Assembly: GCA_964601935.1 (NCBI GenBank)
Contig: CAZROP010000001.1
Span: 185,867 to 249,866 of the forward strand
Length of the DNA stretch: 64,000 nt
Source: an uncultured Candidatus Saccharibacteria bacterium
GTDB taxonomy: Bacteria > Patescibacteriota > Minisyncoccia > Phycocordibacterales > UBA1006
Direction: 5' to 3'
The position numbers were made by a program, and so were the translations under genes. Each line of letters starts with the position of its first letter. Position 1 is the stretch's first letter. The notes below the pieces were generated by a model. That model was not told the DNA's origin. It saw only the letters and a list, made by a program, of their open reading frames with translations, and made no database searches. Shown piece by piece: positions 4,531-41,716 of the stretch.

Positions 4531-5136
4531 ATGGAAATAACACCCAAAACATTTACTATCCCAGCGAAACTGATCGGCAGCATAACCCCAACAACCATTG
4601 CAGAACATTTAAAGCTGTATCAAGGCTATGTTGCCAATGCAAACACTGTACTGACTAAAAAACAGGAATATATGAAGGACCCTGCAATGAATACCTACGA
4701 GATCAGCGAGCTCAATCGCCGACTATCATTCGAATATAACGGTATCACTAACCACGAACTTTATTTCGAACAAATAGAAGGCGGACCATCTGCCATTGAC
4801 ACCTCGAGTGCTCTCTATGCAAAAATAGTGGATCAATGGGGTTCATGGGACGCCTGGATCGCCGACTTTGTACAAACCGCAAAAACACGTGGTATCGGCT
4901 GGGCTATGCTGTATTATGATTCAGAGCGTGACTTCTTTATTAATTCCTGGGTAGATGAACAGCATATCGGCCATCTGGGATCATTGCACTGTATTTACGC
5001 TCTCGATATGTGGGAACACTCGTATGTATTGGATTATTTACCATCCGGCAAAGCATCCTACATACAGGACTACATGAGTAACACTAACTGGAATATACCT
5101 CAGGAACGGTATAACGCGATAACACATCAGGGTTAA
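4531..5136 (+). CDS. Fe/Mn-family superoxide dismutase
   Basis: 201 aa. Motifs are EYNGITNHELYF, GIGWAMLYYD and DMWEHSYVLDY. The ligand His in AEHLKLYQGYV aligns to the canonical position. Confidence 0.8.
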   Translation: MEITPKTFTIPAKLIGSITPTTIAEHLKLYQGYVANANTVLTKKQEYMKDPAMNTYEISELNRRLSFEYNGITNHELYFEQIEGGPSAIDTSSALYAKIVDQWGSWDAWIADFVQTAKTRGIGWAMLYYDSERDFFINSWVDEQHIGHLGSLHCIYALDMWEHSYVLDYLPSGKASYIQDYMSNTNWNIPQERYNAITHQG

Positions 5137-5246: not shown

Positions 5247-6344
5247 ATGTGTAACCTTCTGCATCATATGAAAAAGCATATACTTCTCATGCCGGGACGT
5301 AGTTTTGCATTTGTCATATGCGGAGTCTTTGCATGTGTAGGATTCTTGTTCTCTGTTGTCTTTGTAGGAATGAATGTGGGTCTGTTCAATGTTCGTGGGG
5401 CCGCAGCAGAACGCAATATATCAATAGGTATTACTACTCAGGCAAACGATCAGCCACAGACGAGAAGTGCGCTCTCCTGTATGATACATGCGCTCGATGC
5501 CGAGGCTCCTGATACTGCCCAGGCAATTTCGCAAACTCTATCGGTTACGAATGATATACCGCTCGCCACCACCATGACCCAACGCGCACTGGGCACAACA
5601 AAAAGCCTCCAGGCACAGAATATTATCACAGCATGCTCCGAGGTAGGACAGTTTATACAAGACAACATTCAGCGACGTACCTCCTATGTATGGGCAAATA
5701 GCCCAGAGTGGGCAACATTATCCGCAGCGCTGATTCGAGACCGCGAGCACATACAGCGTGCCGCCGCCGACGCACAAATCAACCCACGACTTATCGTCAC
5801 AGGCGTAATCGGCGAACAGTTCCGATTCTTTGCTGGGCAGCGCGAATCATTCAAACGATATTTTGAACCTCTCAAAATATTCGGCAGACTATCAAAATTC
5901 TCCTACGGTATAGCAGGGCTCAAACCTGATACCGTGCGACAGGTCGAATCCCATATCATAAATCCTGATAGTATCTTTTATCTAGGACCTCAATATGAAT
6001 CTATTATTCATTATACTGAATCAGAATTGGAACAATACGATGATCCACAGCTGGCTCGTATCACTGATCCTCATAATAATTACTATTCGTATCTCTACGT
6101 AGGATTATTTATGCGCCAGGCCATGCAGCAATGGGAACGATCAGGATTTCCTATCAATAATCAACCTGGGGTACTGGCAACCCTGTACAACCTAGGATTT
6201 AACCGGTCTTTACCTAAAAGTAATCCCGGCATAGGCGGAGCCATCATCAAAATTGGCAATACTGAATACACATTCGGACAAATCGGCGAAGAATTTTACT
6301 ACTCAGGAGAATTAGTATCAGAGTTTCCGTATCCTACTGAATAA
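5247..6344 (+). CDS. membrane-anchored hypothetical protein
   Basis: 365-aa ORF with one N-terminal TM (FAFVICGVFACVGFLFSVVFVGM). The start is probably MKKHILL at 5268. No motif was recognised. Confidence 0.5.
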   Translation: MCNLLHHMKKHILLMPGRSFAFVICGVFACVGFLFSVVFVGMNVGLFNVRGAAAERNISIGITTQANDQPQTRSALSCMIHALDAEAPDTAQAISQTLSVTNDIPLATTMTQRALGTTKSLQAQNIITACSEVGQFIQDNIQRRTSYVWANSPEWATLSAALIRDREHIQRAAADAQINPRLIVTGVIGEQFRFFAGQRESFKRYFEPLKIFGRLSKFSYGIAGLKPDTVRQVESHIINPDSIFYLGPQYESIIHYTESELEQYDDPQLARITDPHNNYYSYLYVGLFMRQAMQQWERSGFPINNQPGVLATLYNLGFNRSLPKSNPGIGGAIIKIGNTEYTFGQIGEEFYYSGELVSEFPYPTE

Positions 6345-6444: not shown

Positions 6445-7464
6445 CTAGCCCCCAATTACGATATCTTCAAGCGACTGAAATGCATTCTGTGCATTTGATA
6501 TTTGCTGCTTCAGACTTGATCGGTATTGATCCAGGAATTCCACCAGAGTGATCCCTTCTACCTCTACCTGAGTGGCAGCATTCGGGCCTACGTAACGCCA
6601 GTGCCAGGGTTCTGCACGGAATCCTGTGATAGCTTCTTTGCCCTCTGGATAACTGTTTACAAAACCAAATTCAGCAGCATTTTTATACAACCACTCTATT
6701 TGCTTGCCAGCTGTTAATGGAACACGCTTTCCATCTTCTTCTGCTGCGAAATCTGCTGATGTTCCCAGATTATGTTCGGACCGCCCTGGCAATGCTACAA
6801 TACGATGAGCATACTCTCCTATACGACGCACCATGACCTGTAGCAAGTAATCCTGCGAGTCTTCACCACGGTAGGATGAGGTTACATACAGGTTAACACC
6901 GTCATCTGCTGCTGCCTGGTACATACGCTTTAGCGCATGATAAGTTTCTGCCTCCAGACATACAGGACCATTAGAAGGTATCGAATTATCTAGTTCAAGG
7001 ACCAAATTGTTGGGTACATATTCACTCGGCAAGACACGTGCTTTATTCACATTATCCAGTCGGAAATCTGCTACATCGCGACTGGTCTGACCTACGGGGC
7101 AGTACAAAAAGGCATACAGCGAATTAATATTTTTCTTGGTCTCAGGTGCGAGCCATGCCTTGCCTGGTCCCTGGTGAACATTCAGAGTATCCCGCGTAAT
7201 TTTATCCCACACCCCAGAAGCATTGAGATCATACCCTCGCGAGCTCAGATAATGTTGAATTATCAGAATCTGCTGACGAGTGAGTTTTGAAGCATCTGAT
7301 GGAAAAGAAAAAGATGAATCCGTAGCTCTCCACGCATCCACCAATGAATAAGGTATATTCAAATATAATCGAGGATCAGTCTCGGTGTTCGTCACAGCAA
7401 AAGATATTCCTGGAACAGCCAATACCAAACAACATACAATAGAACACATCCGACGATACAACAT
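6445..7464 (-). CDS. D-alanyl-D-alanine carboxypeptidase, VanY/M15B-like, with a peptidoglycan-binding domain
   Basis: 339 aa with a signal/anchor. It has a PG_binding-like stretch IIQHYLSSRGYDLNASGVWDKITRDTL and zinc motifs PGRSEHNLGTSADF and EPWHWRYVG. Confidence 0.8.
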   Translation of the reverse strand: MLYRRMCSIVCCLVLAVPGISFAVTNTETDPRLYLNIPYSLVDAWRATDSSFSFPSDASKLTRQQILIIQHYLSSRGYDLNASGVWDKITRDTLNVHQGPGKAWLAPETKKNINSLYAFLYCPVGQTSRDVADFRLDNVNKARVLPSEYVPNNLVLELDNSIPSNGPVCLEAETYHALKRMYQAAADDGVNLYVTSSYRGEDSQDYLLQVMVRRIGEYAHRIVALPGRSEHNLGTSADFAAEEDGKRVPLTAGKQIEWLYKNAAEFGFVNSYPEGKEAITGFRAEPWHWRYVGPNAATQVEVEGITLVEFLDQYRSSLKQQISNAQNAFQSLEDIVIGG

Positions 7465-33305: not shown

Positions 33306-33887
33306 AATAGTTATTGATAAAGATGGATTGTTAATAATAAAGTATCACATCGAGTGTAGAGAATTATGTCCTATACACTTCGATAGTACGAGTATACATG
33401 TCTATTACTAAGTAACGCAAAACAACTGTGTGGATAAAAGACATATTAATGTGGTAAAACAGGTGGATAGACTGAGTATAGTGTCTTTTATAATGTGCAG
33501 ATACTAGTGCACTAGTGTGGAGAGAGCTAATCCAAAGTTACTAGAAATATATTCAACTAATACTTTGTTGTCTTGGATGCTTTTTGGTTATGTCTTTTAA
33601 TATTCTGTCTTCACAGGTCCCGACCTGGGGTTATAAAAACAAGGAGTATAACGACTATGTTTTTCTATGCAAGGCCCAGGAATTAGAAAGATAGCAGGAC
33701 TTCGTAAGCGTATACCTCCCAGAATAAGCTTAAAGTGATAATATAGTCTCTATAGGCCCTCAAATAAATTCAGGGTGACAGATCAAAGTGATTTTTCCTT
33801 AAAAATATGTATCCTGGGATGACAAAGTAAAACCCCTGCCGTATAGAGAGGGGTTTTTAGATGAGAGCACGGTACGACAGAGGAACC

Positions 33888-36074
33888 TTAAGCTGTACCA
33901 GACAATCTCTTCATAGAAAGACCGATACGATCTCGTTCTTTGTCTACAGAAACAATGATTGCTTCTACGGATTGTCCTTGCGATAGCTTATCGCTTACAC
34001 GTGAAACGCGATCTTTGGATATTTCAGAGATATGAATCATACCTGAAGTATTCCCCCACTCTACAATGGCGCCTGTTTCGTCAATAATTTTAACTACCAC
34101 TGCTGTTACACGCTCACCTACAACCCATTCATGAGTCATGTCCTCTATAATTTTGCGTGCCGCAGAAGGTCCTGAAAAAGATTGGCTTGTTTCAGCTAGT
34201 CCTTTTTCTGGGTGACCAGTAATAAATATTCTTCCGTCGTCCTCAATGCTGATAGTGGTTTTTGTGTCCTTTTGAATCTTTTGGATAGTCTTACCTCCGC
34301 CACCTATAACCAAACCTATCTTTTCTGGATCAATTTGTAGTATTTCAATACGCGGTGCGTATGGTGATAATATAGGTCGAGGTACAGAAATAGCATCAGT
34401 AATCGTCTTTAAAAGCGTTTCATGTGCAACACGGGCCGCTCGAACTGCCTCGCGACACACAGAAACAGGGATACTCGCTAATTTTATATCCATCTGGATG
34501 GCAGTGATACCTGCACTTGTTCCTGCAACTTTGAAATCCATATCTCCATGATGATCCTCGGGGCCCTGAATATCGGTCAATAAAGCATATTTGCTAGTAA
34601 CTGCATCCATCATGAGTCCTATAGAAATTCCAACTACCGGTCGGGTAATAGGTACTCCAGCATCCATTAGAGCCAGAGTTGCAGCACAAACACTGGCCTG
34701 ACTGGTTGATCCGTTAGATGAAAGACATTCTGATACTACACGGATAGTATAGGGAAATAGGTCTACATTAGGGATAACTGGCTCGAGAGCCTTCTGAGCC
34801 AGAGCTCCATGGCCCAATTCGCGTCTGCCAGTTGATCCTATACGACCAGTTTCTCCTGTGCTGTAGGGAGGAAAGTTGTAGTGATGCCAAAATCGCTCCT
34901 CTCCGGCACTATCCATAGATTCATGCATCAAATTACTATCGGGTCCAGCCAGTGTTGCAACTGACAGTACATGTGTTTCACCGCGGTAGAATATGCCACT
35001 ACCATGTAATCTGTCGGATATACCTCCTGCCTGGGCATATAATGGACGTACTTCATCCATTTTTCGACCATCAGCACGTTTTTTGTCTTGTAGTGCTGCA
35101 GTGTGGAGGACTTCATCAATCTTGTGATCCAAAAAGTCACTAGAATTGTGAAAGGGATCAGATTCTTTTTCTATTTGTGGGTTTTCTTCAGTAACTTTTT
35201 TATATTCTTTTCGTTCTTCCTCGATTATCTCCTTCCAGGTAGTGAATATCTGTCCTATACGAGATTTACTGTCAGTACCAAACAGATCGCGTTCTATAAT
35301 CAGTCGCATACGTGTCTCGTATATGTCTGATAATTTTTGAGAAAATACCGGGAATTCGATTACTTTTTTTGTTTTTCCTACTGTAGTACGTAATTCAGTT
35401 ATCCAGGATGTCCATTGTGCTGTAATAGACACAGTCGTGTCTAATAATTGATCAAATAGCTCAGGAGATACCTCAGCAGAGCCCATTTCTATCATGTTTA
35501 CTGCTGTACCATTGCCACATACCAGTAGATCTGCAGATAGAAAAGGCGTAATCGACATATTAGGTTGATAGGGGTTAATAGATATTTCTTGAGAATTTGA
35601 ATTCAATAATACACCACTACGAGCACAGCCAATAGGTCCATTCCACGGAATGTCTGATATGTGTAACGCCATAGATGCTGCGTTTGTAGCCAAGACAACA
35701 GGATCGTAATCTCCAACAGAAAGTACGGTTACGATGATTTGTACGGAGTTTTTGATACGGCTATCGAATAAAGGACGTAATGTTCTGTCTATAATACGTG
35801 ATGCTAACGTTGCATTCAGGCTGGGACGTCCCTCGCGACGCTGGTAAGGACCGCCAGCTATTTTGCCAGATGCATAGAATCGCTCGGTATATTCGACAGT
35901 CAAATTGAAATATCCAGGATTCTTGTGTGTATCATCACCCATAGTGATCGCAGCCAGCACTACTGTTCCGTTTGCTGATAGCATTATTGACCCGTTTGCC
36001 TGTCCTGCTAAATCGGTGAGGTGCGCCGTAACTGTGGTTCCTGATATGTCCTTTATATAGGTTGTGTGTTTCAT
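33888..36074 (-). CDS. pnp: polynucleotide phosphorylase
   Basis: Two RNase PH domains, a KH domain (IGLVIGGGGKTIQKIQ) and a C-terminal S1 domain. The start is taken at MKHTTY (36074); the ORF is open to 36137. Confidence 0.95.
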   Translation of the reverse strand: MKHTTYIKDISGTTVTAHLTDLAGQANGSIMLSANGTVVLAAITMGDDTHKNPGYFNLTVEYTERFYASGKIAGGPYQRREGRPSLNATLASRIIDRTLRPLFDSRIKNSVQIIVTVLSVGDYDPVVLATNAASMALHISDIPWNGPIGCARSGVLLNSNSQEISINPYQPNMSITPFLSADLLVCGNGTAVNMIEMGSAEVSPELFDQLLDTTVSITAQWTSWITELRTTVGKTKKVIEFPVFSQKLSDIYETRMRLIIERDLFGTDSKSRIGQIFTTWKEIIEEERKEYKKVTEENPQIEKESDPFHNSSDFLDHKIDEVLHTAALQDKKRADGRKMDEVRPLYAQAGGISDRLHGSGIFYRGETHVLSVATLAGPDSNLMHESMDSAGEERFWHHYNFPPYSTGETGRIGSTGRRELGHGALAQKALEPVIPNVDLFPYTIRVVSECLSSNGSTSQASVCAATLALMDAGVPITRPVVGISIGLMMDAVTSKYALLTDIQGPEDHHGDMDFKVAGTSAGITAIQMDIKLASIPVSVCREAVRAARVAHETLLKTITDAISVPRPILSPYAPRIEILQIDPEKIGLVIGGGGKTIQKIQKDTKTTISIEDDGRIFITGHPEKGLAETSQSFSGPSAARKIIEDMTHEWVVGERVTAVVVKIIDETGAIVEWGNTSGMIHISEISKDRVSRVSDKLSQGQSVEAIIVSVDKERDRIGLSMKRLSGTA

Positions 36075-36359
36075 AGATGGTTCTGTTATGTCGAGTAATA
36101 AAGTATTGATTAGATTAATCAATAGATCTGTAACCAATCGCCAGTATTCATAAGGGTATTCATACTAATAGCATAACCAGAATGCCAGAGTAGTGTATTT
36201 CACGACTCTGATAGTGATTATGTGAATTAATATTCAGAGTATGAAGAGCCTGAGAATACGAGCAGGTTGGTGGATCAAGTACGAGTATAGCATATAGACG
36301 AGTGACTACCTAATCAGTGGATACAGAGAGGTTTTTCGGGTAATCGGCTGTTGAATAAA

Positions 36360-36400
36360 CAAAAACATCTCGTTTCCATAATGGAAACGAGATGTTTTTG
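36360..36400. terminator. strong bidirectional hairpin separating the pilin cluster from pnp
   Basis: caaaaacatctcgtttcca / taa / tggaaacgagatgtttttg forms a perfect 19-bp stem. Confidence 0.8.
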
Positions 36401-36511
36401 TTATTAGATAAAGTATACGCATACTTTTCACTCCTGCGAGTAGTTTCTCCACAAACAAAAAACCACTGTCATGACGCAGTGGTTTTTGTAGATACTAACT
36501 AGATAAACCTA

Positions 36512-37012
36512 TTATGGACATTTCACAGTCGCAGGTGTTCCAGCAGCAGCAGCAATAGTTACTACACTGGATGAAGCAGCAATCTGTTTGTTGGATCCTG
36601 CTGAGTCAGCACACCATGCAGTACTACCTGCACCACTCTTCAATAATGTGACCGCAGCCCAAGAAACTGAGTTACTAGAACATGCAGTTGCCACTGTTGT
36701 TGATGTTGAAACGGCAGCACCTGCTGTACTTGCAGCTACTGTTGTCGCAGGTAAGTAGGCCTGTCCTGCTGCCAACACTCCATCATATGTCTTACTTGTA
36801 GTAGCACATACAGTTTGATAACCTGTTGTTGTTTCATCGTAAATAACTTCTGCCGAAGCTCTCACATTAGATATATTACCCTTGATCGCAGCATCAGCAC
36901 CTTTCACACGCGCACTGTTTACTGAACCAATCACTACTGTTGCAAGAACACCAATGATGGCAATAACCACGAGAAGCTCTATCAGAGTAAAACCTCGTAA
37001 TTTTATACTCAT
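36512..37012 (-). CDS. type IV pilin / pseudopilin-like protein (paralog 1)
   Basis: 166 aa with the class III signal MSIKLRG|FTLIELLVVIAIIGVLA. The C-terminal IAAAAGTPATVKCP is shared by all three paralogs. Confidence 0.9.
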   Translation of the reverse strand: MSIKLRGFTLIELLVVIAIIGVLATVVIGSVNSARVKGADAAIKGNISNVRASAEVIYDETTTGYQTVCATTSKTYDGVLAAGQAYLPATTVAASTAGAAVSTSTTVATACSSNSVSWAAVTLLKSGAGSTAWCADSAGSNKQIAASSSVVTIAAAAGTPATVKCP

Positions 37013-37069
37013 AGTATATTAAATTGTTAAGTTGATAATATGATAGAGAATTTACGTATTATTCTCTAT
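36783..37069. repeat. 287-bp perfect direct repeat (copy A) covering the pilin 5' coding region plus 57 nt upstream
   Basis: It is base-for-base identical to 37531-37817 by manual alignment. Confidence 0.9.
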
Positions 37070-37070
37070 C
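37042..37070 (-). promoter_or_regulatory. conserved palindrome upstream of each pilin gene (also at 37790-37817 and 38471-38497)
   Basis: (g)atagagaat-ttacgtatt-attctctat(c) lies 30-58 nt upstream of each pilin start codon. Confidence 0.5.
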
Positions 37071-37253
37071 ATGTAACAATCATATCAGTCATTACTAAGT
37101 TTTCATTATGAATAATTGGGTAAACTGTGGAGATCTAGTATGGGTATACGCACCAATTTAGTATGTGTGACATAGTGAGTACACTAGCTCTGGAAAATAC
37201 AAAGACCACTGTCGATTGACAGTGGTCTCGGTAAATACTAGTTATGTAACACA

Positions 37254-37760
37254 CTATGGACATTTCACAGTAGCTGGCGTCCCAGCTGCCGCGGCAATAG
37301 ATACTGTATAAGCTGTGGTCAGTGTAATCTGCTCATTAGACCCCGATGAATCAGCGCACCATGCTGTTAACCCTGCTGTTCCTCGTAGTGGTACCGCTGC
37401 AACCCAAGAAATCCCATTACTAACACATACACCCAGTGTTGTTGGTGCGCCAGTATTAGTTGCAGTACCGCTTGTATTGGCGGTTACTGTCGCGTCAGAT
37501 CTGTGTACCTTTGCTGCCGCTAATACCCCTTCATATGTCTTACTTGTAGTAGCACATACAGTTTGATAACCTGTTGTTGTTTCATCGTAAATAACTTCTG
37601 CCGAAGCTCTCACATTAGATATATTACCCTTGATCGCAGCATCAGCACCTTTCACACGCGCACTGTTTACTGAACCAATCACTACTGTTGCAAGAACACC
37701 AATGATGGCAATAACCACGAGAAGCTCTATCAGAGTAAAACCTCGTAATTTTATACTCAT
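37254..37760 (-). CDS. type IV pilin / pseudopilin-like protein (paralog 2)
   Basis: 168 aa. The first 76 residues are identical to paralog 1. Confidence 0.9.
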   Translation of the reverse strand: MSIKLRGFTLIELLVVIAIIGVLATVVIGSVNSARVKGADAAIKGNISNVRASAEVIYDETTTGYQTVCATTSKTYEGVLAAAKVHRSDATVTANTSGTATNTGAPTTLGVCVSNGISWVAAVPLRGTAGLTAWCADSSGSNEQITLTTAYTVSIAAAAGTPATVKCP

Positions 37761-37817
37761 AGTATATTAAATTGTTAAGTTGATAATATGATAGAGAATT
37801 TACGTATTATTCTCTAT
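37531..37817. repeat. 287-bp perfect direct repeat (copy B)
   Basis: It is identical to 36783-37069. Confidence 0.9.
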
Positions 37818-37933
37818 ATAGCTGTATAATAACAGACTTAATAACTGTTTATATTTAATTTTCTCGAACCCTGTGGAGATCTAGAACAATATAAAAACTA
37901 CTATCTGTCGATAGTAGTTTTTATTATTCATAC

Positions 37934-38431
37934 TTATGGACATTTCACGGTAGGAGGCGTCCCAGCTGCGGCGGCGATGGTTACACTACCAACAACGGCA
38001 GGTACTGATTTGTTAGACCCCGATGAATCAGCGCACCATGCAGTCGAATAGTTTGCTCCTTTGAGAGGAGAAACAGCAGCCCATGATACTCCATTACTAA
38101 CGCAAACAGCTAATATCCCTGATGCCGTATTTGCTGCTGCACCAGTTGTGTTGGATGCTACGGTTATAGTAGATCCGTGTACTTTCGCTGCGGCGAGAAC
38201 ACCTTCGTATCCTTTGCTGGTAGTAGCACATACACTCGTGTAATTACCTGTTTCATCATAAATAGTTTCTGCTGTAGTGCGTACATTCGATATATTCCCC
38301 TTGATAGCTGCGTCTGCTGCTTTTACTCTTGCACTGTTTACTGAACCAATCACTACTGTTGCAAGAACACCAATGATGGCAATAACCACGAGAAGCTCTA
38401 TCAGAGTAAAACCTCGTAATTTTATAATCAT
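37934..38431 (-). CDS. type IV pilin / pseudopilin-like protein (paralog 3)
   Basis: 165 aa with MIIKLRG|FTLIELLVVIAIIGVLATVVIGSVNSARVK. Confidence 0.9.
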   Translation of the reverse strand: MIIKLRGFTLIELLVVIAIIGVLATVVIGSVNSARVKAADAAIKGNISNVRTTAETIYDETGNYTSVCATTSKGYEGVLAAAKVHGSTITVASNTTGAAANTASGILAVCVSNGVSWAAVSPLKGANYSTAWCADSSGSNKSVPAVVGSVTIAAAAGTPPTVKCP

Positions 38432-38640
38432 ACGTTTCTAATATTACCATTGTTAAGTTTATAAAATCTGATAGAGAATTTACGTATTATTCTCTATATA
38501 TCTATGGTATCAGAATAATTCTGTGAAAGGCTGGATAGTATCTGTTAATTGTGGAGAATGTGAAATCTAGTTGTGAGTAGATTTATTGATACCTTACAAG
38601 AATTAATCTATTTTAGATTCTTGATTTGCTGATTAACTAT

Positions 38641-38676
38641 AACAAACCCCTGAACAGTTGTTCAGGGGTTTGTTTG
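38641..38676 (-). terminator. hairpin terminator after rpsO
   Basis: aacaaacccctgaaca / gt / tgttcaggggtttgtt forms a 16-bp stem. Confidence 0.75.
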
Positions 38677-38688
38677 GAAGAGGTAGTA

Positions 38689-38973
38689 CTATTTTCGCAG
38701 TTCCAGTTTTTCGATCAGAGCAGTGTAGGCTGCGACATCATGCTTTTTTATGTAGTTTAGCATACGGCGGCGAGTTGAAACGAGTTTCACTAATCCCATT
38801 CTACTCGACAGATCTTTCTTGTGGATCTTGAGGTGCTCGGTGAGCTCCTTTATGCGAGCAGTCAGGAGAGCAACCTGTACGGGAGCAGATCCTGTATCGT
38901 TCGTCGATTTCTGATGAGGCTTGATAATTCTGGTTTTTGTTTTTGAAGTCATCATAGATGGTTCGCGAGACAA
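38689..38973 (-). CDS. rpsO: 30S ribosomal protein S15
   Basis: [50 protein letters not shown]. Confidence 0.95.
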
Positions 38974-39011
38974 CTAGTTGTGTAACCGATTGTTCGTATT
39001 AGTTTGTAACA

Positions 39012-39992
39012 ATGCTATACTATAGCCATATTATAGTTATGTCAAGTCATGCTGCTTTGCGCCAATTCTTGGAACATTTAGAAATCGAACGTGGTCGATC
39101 CTCGCTCACTCTGCGTAACTATGAACATTATTTGACCACACTGTTCAATGTGATGAAGATCGAGTCTGTGGCTCAGATCGATGCAGATGTTATTCGCGAG
39201 TTTCGGTTGTGGTTGAATCGTCAGCCAGGCGCACGAGCACGAGGTCAGACAGATTCTCTGATGAAACGACGCACTCAAAATTACTACCTCATCGCTCTGC
39301 GATCATTCCTACGGTATGCGATGAAACGGGGTTGGACGCAGTTTGCTCCTGACAATATCGAACTCGCCCGTGTCGGTGATCGTCACATTGATATGATATC
39401 TGCTGATGAGCTTTCCAGAATAATGTCATCATTTGATACGACTACTCGTTCAGGTGTTCGGGACCGAGCTATACTCGAACTCCTCTACTCGACCGGATTG
39501 CGTGTATCAGAATTGGTGTCACTAAACTGTGACCTGGATCTATCCCGCGATGAACTGTCGATTCGCGGTAAGGGTGACAAGGTGCGACTCGTATTCGTTT
39601 CACCAGATGCTCGCATATGGTTGAAAAAATACCTCGGACTTCGTGCCGATGCACAGGATGCTCTGTTCGTCGATGAGCGTGCCAGCGCCGCAGAGTCATC
39701 GGATCGCGAGGCACGCCTAACGCCTCGATCTGTGGAACGTATTGTCGCCGCCGCCGCGGTACGTGCTGGTATCGGAAAGAAGGTGACCCCACATATCATT
39801 CGTCATTCGTTCGCGACAGGTCTATTGGAAAATGGCGCGGACATTCGTTCGGTGCAGACACTGCTCGGTCATGCGCATATCGGGACAACGCAGATCTACA
39901 CGCATGTCACTGACAAACATCTAAAAGATGTATTCAAAAAATTTCACAAACCGACAGATACCTCGGTTACAGAAAAAACCTCTGACACGTAG
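39012..39992 (+). CDS. xerC: tyrosine site-specific recombinase, XerC/XerD family
   Basis: It has an SSLTLRNYEHYL core-binding domain and catalytic motifs LLYSTGLRVSEL, HIIRHSFAT and LLGHAHIGTTQIYTHV. The start may be 39039 (MSSHAAL). Confidence 0.9.
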   Translation: MLYYSHIIVMSSHAALRQFLEHLEIERGRSSLTLRNYEHYLTTLFNVMKIESVAQIDADVIREFRLWLNRQPGARARGQTDSLMKRRTQNYYLIALRSFLRYAMKRGWTQFAPDNIELARVGDRHIDMISADELSRIMSSFDTTTRSGVRDRAILELLYSTGLRVSELVSLNCDLDLSRDELSIRGKGDKVRLVFVSPDARIWLKKYLGLRADAQDALFVDERASAAESSDREARLTPRSVERIVAAAAVRAGIGKKVTPHIIRHSFATGLLENGADIRSVQTLLGHAHIGTTQIYTHVTDKHLKDVFKKFHKPTDTSVTEKTSDT

Positions 39993-40300
39993 TCGGAGGT
40001 TTTTTGTTTCATTATCCCTTCTCTTTCCGTCATTCTGAGTTTATCTTAGAATCCACAAACTCTCACTCCCAGATTAAACTTATGTAATACTGCAACCTCT
40101 CTGGACCCTGAAATGAATTTATCATGCCCTATGGGTACAGGGTGACAGAGAGTGTAGTGATGAGCTATTCCAGTACACGTGTGTAACCCAATAAAACAAG
40201 CGTTACACTCGCCTATATAATCAGTGCAAATAAATAAGCCAACTACCCGAGGAGTAGTTGGCCGTAATAGTTATACTGGTTTTTCATTAGATTCTATTCC

Positions 40301-41716
40301 TTAGCTGGTCTTCAGTCGTTGTGAGAGACCTAGAACAATCGCAAGTATTCCTGTTAGCAGAGCGACAGTAGTTGGTTGCCAGTCATAGTGTTTTATCGCT
40401 AACATAATACTGAGCGATATCAGGAGTCCTGCCAGTGCAACCCTTGTTTCATAAATCGACAACATGGTCGTTCCATATTGTCGGCGTAGCTTGTTCGGTA
40501 TGCTGCCGGCTATAGATCCTGCATGCACTCGTCCAAATATGCCTGCAGTAGTAAAGATGCTCAGTATTATTCCGGCAACTAAAAGCCCATCTATAAATTT
40601 TGTGCAGATCATAAGAACTCCGATCAGTACGATTGATGACTTCAGTACAAGAAACTCCATTCTTGTTTGTCCTTCATCGTTGCGACGTTTGTAGTTGTTC
40701 GTTTTTTCAAACATAACAACAAACATGCCGCCAATAACACTGAATAGAATTGTCGCTGCTGTCACAACCCAAATGGGTATATGATGGATCAACGCGATTG
40801 GTTCTGTTATGGGTACCCAGATCAATTTCACTACCTGGGCAATTGTTGCGAATGATAAACCAATGAGAACAAATGATCTCACTGATTTTTCTTTGCGTAA
40901 TGTTACCCAGCTTGCAACTAGTATTTCCTTCCAGGGAAGCTTACTCTGCACCTGGATGGGTATCGTCTGATGATACATATGCCACCACACGTATCCAACG
41001 AGTAGAGCACAAATCCCTGCTCCGACTAGCCATACCCCAGCAGGATTCCAGCTAGTTGCTAGGAATCCTCCGGCAGTCCCAGTTGCAAACATAAATACCG
41101 ATATGAAACCAAATACTTCTTTTGCTGATTTGCGACAAAAGTTATTTGATTCCAACTCTATAAGGGCTGTATCGATTCCTTCTTTGTTCCGGTTCTGAAG
41201 CTTCGCCTTGAGGTGGTAGGTGTTTTCGATAATATTGCGGTACCATACACCGAGTACGCCAGACACGCACGCGCCTGCGATACCGAATGTGATTTCAGCC
41301 AATACTGATGTAGTCCATGTACCTATTCCATACAATAAGTATGAGAATAGGAACATCGTCGTTCCGAACAAATATACTTTCCTTCGCCCAAGTCTACTAT
41401 CCGCCAAAATTCCAAAAGGAATGTTTAATAGAAAATAGGTAGCGTGGTAGATTGCCTGTAGCGTTGCTGCACCCTGAAATCCAAATGTCTGCTGTACGAA
41501 TACTGCATACATACCGGCTTTCAGTCCGACCGCAATCGCTAGTATTATTTGCGAGTTCCGGAAAAATACCGATACTCGTCGTCTATGACCTTTGAGGTCT
41601 TTCTGTAGTCGCTGGATTTCCAGCTCGCTCAAATCTTCGCCCTCAACAAAATCAAATTCCTCTGTTTTCTTAAAGGTGAAGATTTTGCTGTACTCATGCA
41701 AGAGATACTTCTTCAC
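40301..41716 (-). CDS. MFS-like polytopic membrane transporter with an N-terminal cytoplasmic extension
   Basis: 471 aa with ~12 TM spans and the motif LADSRLGRRKVYL. Confidence 0.6.
   Translation of the reverse strand: MKKYLLHEYSKIFTFKKTEEFDFVEGEDLSELEIQRLQKDLKGHRRRVSVFFRNSQIILAIAVGLKAGMYAVFVQQTFGFQGAATLQAIYHATYFLLNIPFGILADSRLGRRKVYLFGTTMFLFSYLLYGIGTWTTSVLAEITFGIAGACVSGVLGVWYRNIIENTYHLKAKLQNRNKEGIDTALIELESNNFCRKSAKEVFGFISVFMFATGTAGGFLATSWNPAGVWLVGAGICALLVGYVWWHMYHQTIPIQVQSKLPWKEILVASWVTLRKEKSVRSFVLIGLSFATIAQVVKLIWVPITEPIALIHHIPIWVVTAATILFSVIGGMFVVMFEKTNNYKRRNDEGQTRMEFLVLKSSIVLIGVLMICTKFIDGLLVAGIILSIFTTAGIFGRVHAGSIAGSIPNKLRRQYGTTMLSIYETRVALAGLLISLSIMLAIKHYDWQPTTVALLTGILAIVLGLSQRLKTS

Follow-up and report, generated by a model that had tools for sequence, protein, structure and literature searches.

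Type IV pili belong to the small set of surface organelles that are conserved in the Candidate Phyla Radiation (CPR)/Patescibacteria; Saccharibacteria rely on them for host binding, twitching motility and competitive fitness (PMC11623550). In Streptococcus sanguinis, two major pilins with identical N-termini, PilE1 and PilE2, are combined at a ratio of 4:3 in heteropolymeric type IV pili (PMC6497953). Here, we describe a locus of three tandem pilin genes, pil1 to pil3, that lies between rpsO and pnp in a 64-kb stretch of contig CAZROP010000001.1 from an uncultured, ultra-small bacterium (this whole 64-kb stretch is called the window below). Like the S. sanguinis system, the locus comprises at least two complete genes for major pilins that are identical at the N-terminus and differ in the globular part, in a cell with a monoderm-type envelope, which by analogy makes mixed filaments from one machine a plausible outcome (PMC6497953, PMC10628169). 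It differs in having three copies, in lying between rpsO and pnp, away from the pil machinery genes, and in that each copy carries its own predicted promoter, leader hairpin and terminator; co-assembly of its products is putative.

Homologous pilins (~45–50% identity) occur in other Paceibacteria, in one to three tandem copies inside a pilB-RR-pilT-pilC-pilA-pilD-minor pilin cluster. The pilA tandems of these type IV pilus (T4P) clusters (loci L081, L083, L084, L193 and L194 of our comparison) belong to the same family and likewise consist of two to three co-oriented copies, but they are part of the machinery operon, lack a leader hairpin and reach just 72–82% DNA identity in their 5′ regions, so that perfect identity tracts such as those reported here are no general property of the family. 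In one metagenome variant, L082, an IS200/IS605 Y1 transposase (1670-2359) sits between the tandem pilins of a T4P cluster otherwise identical to that of L081.

The explanation we favour, and consider likely to be correct, is that a single pilin unit was triplicated, that gene conversion homogenised the 5′ ends of the copies, that their transcripts begin with a 5′-terminal mRNA hairpin and that one machine displays the three resulting pilin surfaces. The locus is thus read as a modest variant of known pilin biology and not as a cassette-switching system. What is new, if modest, is that pilins occupy the rpsO–pnp slot throughout a clade, that a whole unit was triplicated and that the pilin leader has a conserved, uncatalogued hairpin.

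Three pilin genes with conversion-homogenised 5′ parts

Three minus-strand open reading frames (ORFs) fill the interval between the genes for ribosomal protein S15 (rpsO) and polynucleotide phosphorylase (PNPase, pnp), namely pil1 (36512..37012, 166 aa), pil2 (37254..37760, 168 aa) and pil3 (37934..38431, 165 aa). All three proteins open with M(S/I)IKLRG|FTLIELLVVIAIIG, i.e. a class III signal peptide with a short basic leader, Gly at −1, Phe at +1, Glu at +5 and a hydrophobic alpha1-N, and all match the prepilin N-terminal methylation motif (PF07963 at 1e-7, TIGR02532 at 5e-8). A profile of 73 homologues matches solved type IVa pilins (Geobacter PilA, Thermus PilA4 and those of Myxococcus, Neisseria and Pseudomonas), and the AlphaFold2 (AF2) model of pil2 (pLDDT 87.5) shows the pilin topology of a long N-terminal helix (10-60) on an antiparallel beta-sheet, here five-stranded and accompanied by a short second helix; a Foldseek search of the model against the PDB returned no significant match. 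Among four conserved cysteines, Cys134/135 and Cys165/167 are invariant across the 73 homologues in the pattern WC.DS.G...C, suggestive of a disulfide-bonded C-terminal D-region. Enrichment in Gly, Ala, Ser and Thr is a pilin property that is strongest in predicted major pilins (PMC11623550); at 49–54% of residues in pil1–3 (53.5% in pil1) versus 29–32% in PNPase and Xer, the composition fits that of predicted major subunits. Homologues in other genomes adjoin pilB/T/C/D. The three genes are new members of a known pilin family, type IV pilin paralogs in tandem as had been proposed from the bare sequence, and each is followed by a terminator of its own: intrinsic terminator-like hairpins on the minus strand lie 3′ of pil1 (36458..36487, folding z = -2.8), pil2 (37202..37229, z = -5.0) and pil3 (37891..37924, z = -6.1).

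Signs of recombination are found at the 5′ ends of the genes. A 287-bp repeat, exact over its whole length and extendable on neither side, runs on the minus strand from the leader hairpin through pil1 codon 76 (36783..37069) and recurs at pil2 (37531..37817), and a 96-nt tract is identical in all three genes (36912..37007 in pil1, 37660-37755 and 38331-38426 in the other two). By codon-wise Nei–Gojobori estimates, synonymous divergence (dS) and nonsynonymous divergence (dN) between pil1 and pil2 are both 0 over codons 1–76 (58 synonymous sites) and rise to 1.16 and 0.49, respectively, over codons 77–153. When either gene is compared with pil3, dS is 0 and dN 0.014 over codons 1–33, followed by a saturated dS of 2.08 over codons 34–76, where the protein is still conserved (dN 0.185). 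Permuting the 158 differences between the pil1 and pil2 units in 20,000 trials gave a longest identical run of 55 nt, as compared with the observed 287, and the corresponding maximum for the three-way tract was 42 nt versus 96. Because perfect 5′ tracts with a dS of 0 abut saturated divergence and both runs exceed the permuted maxima, we conclude that two nested gene-conversion tracts extend over the leader and the N-terminal helix. Sharp-bordered identity tracts inside paralogs with saturated synonymous divergence are also what RecA-dependent concerted evolution of tandem bacterial paralogs produces (e.g. PMC6053082), although at the pil locus only the promoter-proximal third to half is homogenised, with nested borders of 287 and 96 nt. 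Concerted evolution of the 5′ parts of tandem paralogs is a known phenomenon, and a literature search on pilin concerted evolution in particular found nothing specific.

The 3′ end behaves differently. Over the last 15 codons, all pairs of genes have a dS of 0.5–1.7 with a dN of only 0.03–0.07, meaning that the common C-terminus is kept by purifying selection on the protein, with its predicted disulfide-bonded end, and not by exchange. The original prediction had pictured invariant ends around a variable core; this description holds at the DNA level for the 5′ end, while the C-terminus is identical at the protein level only. Its more general suggestion that recombination or gene conversion has acted on the pilins is borne out by the nested 5′ tracts. 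Within the diverged 3′ halves, pil2 (37336-37367) and pil3 (38013-38044) have 31 of 32 nt in common in a segment coding for WCADSSGSN, which may be a short extra conversion tract.

A probable stem-loop in the pilin leader

Each pilin gene is preceded by the same palindrome, again as predicted. The motif ATAGAGAAT-N9-ATTCTCTAT occurs exactly three times in the window (37043, 37791 and 38471), once per gene and even when three mismatches are allowed, compared with a chance expectation of 0.09. On the minus strand, the pil1 copy (37042..37070) reads GATAGAGAAT-AATACGTAA-ATTCTCTATC and is predicted to fold into an RNA hairpin of -9.9 kcal/mol; the pil2 copy (37790..37818) was recovered by the palindrome scan and by a covariance model, and the pil3 copy (38470..38498) is an island of perfect identity amid diverged flanks. 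The element also precedes the single-copy pilin of four out of four relatives, where the loop has the form (A/C)ATACGTAA. Written as left arm, loop and right arm, the orthologous hairpins are GGTAGAGGAG, AATACGTAA and CTCCTGTATC in L192; GATAGAGAAC, AATACGTAA and GTCCTCTATC in L195; GATAAAGCAG, AATACGTAA and CTGCTGTATC in L197; and GATAAAGGGG, CATACGTAA and CCCCTGTATC in L198. The outer stem is conserved and the loop almost invariant, while the inner three pairs vary with compensation (AAT/ATT, GAG/CTC, AAC/GTC, CAG/CTG and GGG/CCC across lineages). In the alignment of all seven sequences, 92.8% of cells are paired, as opposed to 33–54% when the 3′ partner is slid; of the ten pairs in the model (the nine of the stem and a closing G-C), three carry double changes; and none of 500 shuffles reached the observed covariation score. 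These compensatory substitutions are those expected of an mRNA stem-loop, with predicted energies of -7.3 to -10.3 kcal/mol over all copies.

A -10-like hexamer lies 6–9 nt upstream of the 9-nt stem in all seven copies (TATGAT, TATTAT, TACCAT, TATAAT, TACAAT, TATACT and TATACT). In five of them (TATGAT, TATAAT, TACAAT, TATACT and TATACT) the register is identical, the hexamer ending 9 nt before the stem; in pil2 and pil3 it ends 6–8 nt before it. The element takes the extended TGn form in each of the window copies, on the minus strand: TGATATGAT at pil1 (37079..37087), 9 nt upstream of the stem and in register with the orthologues, TGTTATTAT at pil2 (37826..37834) and the weaker TGATACCAT at pil3 (38504..38512). 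From this arrangement we infer that pilin transcription starts at the foot of the hairpin. As pairing is kept by compensatory changes and a -10 hexamer lies just upstream, the palindrome is most likely a 5′-terminal mRNA stem-loop of the pilin transcript.

In this regard, the element resembles the mRNA-stabilising 5′ stem-loops of the E. coli ompA 5′ UTR and the B. subtilis aprE leader, both as cited in PMC3997798. Common to them are a short stable hairpin, predicted in our case, within a few nucleotides of the 5′ end, an mRNA for a surface or secreted protein that is, or in our case would be, very highly expressed, and pairing that is kept in evolution. The pilin hairpin of the window's clade differs in that its loop is almost invariant over deep divergence and in that it is not an Rfam family, its stabilising function being putative; such a loop suggests an additional, sequence-specific partner. 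Rfam gave nothing at gathering score in 33500-40500. Searched over 1.14 Mb of related loci, the covariance model found only the copies described above, with no hairpin before cluster-encoded pilins and none in the more distant relative L001. An exact palindrome scan of metagenome contigs yielded 105 single matches, none upstream of a pilin, which is chance level; one match falls within a coding sequence (CDS), and two fall within a LAGLIDADG-like ORF that has no pilin within 1 kb. In 21 of the 105 (among L086-L190), the spacer is ACAGTTTGT or ACAAACTGT and the arms extend to 12 bp; these represent an unrelated recurrent hairpin element of other organisms.

Several other roles for the palindrome were considered and set aside. 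A promoter inside it (TAGAGA-17-TATCAT) was rejected, TATCAT being unconserved (TATCCA, TATCGC and TATCAA in orthologues), and so was a terminator or attenuator, no U-tract following the palindrome. Complementarity of the loop to the pilin start region, noted by eye, is not conserved in L192 and was dropped.

Two further motifs mark the leader region. AACTTAACA is found on the minus strand 7–39 nt before the ATG of each gene (37025..37033 in pil1, 37773-37781 and 38451-38459) and in L192 and L197; L198 has AACTTTACA instead and L195 is without the motif. Farther upstream, the predicted motif common to pil1 and pil2 was found as described, on the minus strand as CTAGATCTCCACAG at 37125..37138 (copy 1) and 37871..37884 (copy 2). 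On the window strand it reads CTGTGGAGATCTAG and is confined to 37125 and 37871, with a weak significance, since 8 of 100 shuffles give at least two matches at up to two mismatches. In L192 and L198, too, the pilin has the CCACAG core of this motif in its upstream sequence.

Synteny, origin and competing explanations

For the synteny comparison, 80 related pnp loci were combined with loci reached through those pilin homologues whose N-termini are most similar. By its PNPase relatives, the window belongs to the Paceibacteria/Parcubacteria (CPR), the best species-representative match being 58% identical. Directly upstream of pnp, about 73 of the 80 related loci encode an NYN-domain protein (PF01936, 166–200 aa), and in every locus whose contig includes rpsO this gene sits between rpsO and pnp; it is 68–98% identical at the amino acid level among those genomes (L003-L080), where PNPase reaches merely ~45%. 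The premise that rpsO and pnp are normally adjacent, with the pilins as an insertion, hence gives way to a different norm, xer-rpsO-NYN-pnp, and the closest relatives carry one pilin in this slot. L192 and L198, whose contigs reach both ends, are arranged as xer|rpsO-NYN-one pilin-X-pnp, with X denoting a product of 395–409 aa; among the shorter contigs, L197 has NYN and one pilin, and L195 and L196 have NYN and one pilin followed by a 460-aa X. L192 is 78% identical to the window in rpsO, 66% in xer and 62% in the pnp N-terminus. L198 and the window also have in common an Exo_endo_phos gene beyond xer, with a ~470–500-aa ORF between the two in both. Homologues of NYN and of X are not detectable anywhere in the 64 kb of the window.

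Since the closest relatives found already carry one pilin 3′ of NYN, the pilin in the rpsO–pnp slot is ancestral to a clade and was inherited, not recently inserted. A horizontal-transfer signature was looked for and dismissed, the GC content of the pilin region (0.39–0.43) showing no difference from the flanks. L001 has two pilins upstream of pnp, with a ParE-like toxin/antitoxin pair between them. The C-terminal domains of pil1–3 are 59–65% identical to one another versus at most 45% to any other homologue compared, and the relatives L192, L195, L196, L197 and L198 have a single pilin where the window has three, which together indicate a tandem triplication within the lineage of the window, then divergence, then re-homogenisation of the 5′ parts.

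Taken through step by step, the favoured explanation would begin with an ancestral single pilin transcription unit in an rpsO-NYN-[pilA]-X-pnp slot that was tandemly triplicated in the window lineage. Each copy would comprise an extended -10 promoter, the 5′ stem-loop, AACTTAACA, a type IVa major-pilin CDS and an intrinsic terminator and, having its own promoter-like, leader and terminator elements, would be a complete, independently transcribed gene. The globular domains would have diverged long ago (C-terminal halves 59–65% identical, dS >1), and later RecA-type gene conversion between direct repeats would have re-homogenised the 5′ part, over 287 bp in pil1 and pil2 and over the nested 96 bp in all three. 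Conversion would thereby keep identical the signal peptide and the alpha1 helix, the part with which a prepilin contacts its peptidase, the assembly platform and the filament core, while the exposed surface domains differ; with this part in common, the products could be expected to stay acceptable to one and the same peptidase and assembly machine and to pack into the same filament core. The cell would then build pili with three surfaces, as heteropolymers or by alternate use, with an assembly machine presumably encoded elsewhere in the genome. The 5′ hairpin would most likely protect an abundant pilin mRNA from 5′-dependent decay, and its near-invariant loop AAUACGUAA could serve as a protein-binding handle.

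Could the locus instead be a programmed variation system of the Neisseria pilE/pilS kind, with frequent shuffling of variable cores between ends that do not vary, so that the pilus surface changes? Conversion between the copies is demonstrable and non-reciprocal, the variable region maps to the exposed globular domain as in Neisseria, and the 31/32-nt block of pil2 and pil3 might be a micro-conversion tract. Yet all three copies are complete, each with a -10-like element, a leader hairpin and a terminator, and there are no truncated or promoterless silent copies, so the cassette-like layout of the original prediction did not hold up. The diverged DNA of the last 15 codons leaves no second, 3′ anchor for an exchange of cores, whereas pilE/pilS has DNA-conserved segments on both sides; the conserved tract of the window is at the 5′ and not the 3′ end, and conversion homogenises this region and does not move variable segments. 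Nor is there an initiating G-quadruplex (G4) motif (G3+N1-7 x4) on either strand of 35900-39100, or a dedicated recombinase: the neighbouring Xer is syntenic with rpsO where the rpsO–pnp interval has no pilin. No strain variants turned up among 5.8 billion proteins, the next best match being 52% identical. A programmed system is thus very unlikely. Xer as a pilin recombinase or part of an integron-like array was likewise discarded, in view of the xer-rpsO synteny in most of the 80 relatives without a pilin between rpsO and pnp; it scores 243 bits as XerC/D versus 120 on the integron-integrase model (cut-off 265). An invertible or site-specific pilin switch (as in Moraxella Piv and shufflons) or an integron array does not fit direct repeats and a palindrome that precedes single-copy orthologues too, and we infer that the palindrome is no recombination site. 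Still more improbable is that the 287-bp repeat or the third copy arose by mis-assembly of strain variants or by repeat collapse or expansion. The source is a 377-kb contig of a metagenome-assembled genome (MAG), of which the window covers 64 kb, and such repeats do trouble assemblers, as shown by the L001 contig (L001 1-2200), which begins exactly inside the N-terminal helix of a pilin in a repeat-induced break. However, the three units can be told apart by their 3′ halves, terminators and upstream spacers; in the assembly graph, the unique variable segments of such a tandem repeat determine the order of the units and leave only the copy number of the pil2 loop ambiguous; and nested tracts of 287 and 96 nt with clean, codon-level borders are biological in character.

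At the level of the leader, the palindrome had been proposed to be a DNA site for a binding factor, i.e. the operator of a dimeric transcription factor that would co-regulate the three pilin promoters by repression at or near +1. A perfect 9-N9-9 inverted repeat just 3′ of a -10-like hexamer is in the classic operator position, its centre ATACGTAA and the outer GATA.AG/CT.TATC are conserved over five lineages, and TACGTA is palindromic in itself. Against this, the three inner positions of the arms differ from lineage to lineage but keep their complementarity, which a hairpin requires and protein–DNA contact does not; a G·U pair in L192 is permitted on the sense strand only; and the TACGTA core is half a base off-centre relative to the arms. 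Orthologues that keep pairing by compensatory changes and a -10-like hexamer just upstream speak for RNA, and an operator is unlikely. Several points count against the triplicated, hairpin-led pilin unit that we prefer. The promoter scan was not enriched over shuffles (16 sites vs 11.2 ± 3.0), and the putative 5′-terminal position of the hairpin is read from the -10-like hexamers only. Covariation comes from five independent lineages, with column 42/62 mispaired in three of them, and the loop, with nine nearly invariant nucleotides that include the palindromic TACGTA, is also what a DNA-binding dimer could recognise. The perfect identity over 287 bp is possibly slightly overstated by assembler bubble-popping, and foreign 3′ halves imported by recombination would leave a similar mosaic. 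As for assembly of the pilins by one machine, the original statement that the window has no pilus machinery genes agrees with the scan: apart from the pilins, rpsO and pnp, 20 large ORFs, but not the smaller ones, were searched for T4P machinery domains, and none had any; no further GFTLIE-type prepilin occurs elsewhere in the 64 kb.

A bolder version, which we regard as decidedly doubtful, makes the AAUACGUAA loop the recognition site of a dedicated post-transcriptional pilin regulator in this Paceibacteria clade. An attractive candidate would be the NYN-domain RNase, encoded directly upstream of the pilin in all relatives and undetected in the window. If true, three antigenically or adhesively distinct pilins would be under one RNA switch, and an obligate epibiont could change its pilus surface, perhaps also its host range. 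Three self-contained major-pilin genes whose products share an identical, assembly-competent N-terminal half and differ in their exposed domains are a natural candidate for heteropolymeric or alternative pili and therefore for variation in the host range or the immune/phage evasion of an uncultured epibiont. The leader stem-loop, for its part, is a small uncatalogued cis-element that marks the orthologous pilin locus across the Paceibacteria clade, offering a handle both for finding the locus and for studies of post-transcriptional control in organisms with genes that seem to be devoid of Shine–Dalgarno sequences. None of these findings overturns the current understanding.

Neighbouring genes and further observations

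The locus is bounded downstream by pnp (33888..36074, minus strand; NCBIfam PRK11824, 2e-203), whose ATG at 36074 is backed by an alignment of the N-terminus with 80 homologues, and upstream by rpsO (38689..38955, minus strand; S15 match at 6e-32), whose start, MMTS..., agrees with the L192 orthologue. A hairpin/folding scan placed the rpsO terminator hairpin at 38641..38674 (minus strand). The gene for the XerC/XerD-like tyrosine recombinase (39012..39992, plus strand), which diverges from rpsO here as in most of the 80 related loci, is a neighbour by conserved synteny and lies outside the pilin unit. The stretch from the pil1 terminator to pnp contains a perfect 22-bp hairpin with a U-rich run 3′ of it (36358..36402, minus strand; -29.4 kcal/mol, z = -10.7), which occurs once in the window and outside the repeated pilin unit; candidate roles are those of a second terminator and of an RNase III-type processing site within the leader of pnp.

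In the relatives, one or two ORFs of 395–460 aa without a Pfam match lie 3′ of the pilin (L192 5675-8397, L195 4708-6090 and L198 6966-8153) and may be pilus-associated. L192 also has a repeated perfect palindrome with 30-bp arms around the pilin and the downstream gene (4670-4733, 6986-7049 and 5511-5561), which has a REP- or MITE-like look.

No Shine–Dalgarno-like sequence precedes the start codons inspected in the window (e.g. 39012, 30354, 41813 and 50576); the sequence upstream of them is A/T-rich, often with ...AYT right before the ATG. Finally, the 13-nt sequence GAACCATCTATGA is identical at 36071-36083 and 38952-38964, covering the start codons of pnp and rpsO, and may be a common translation-initiation or autoregulatory signal; the pnp and rpsO starts of L192 have just ACATTATGA in common.

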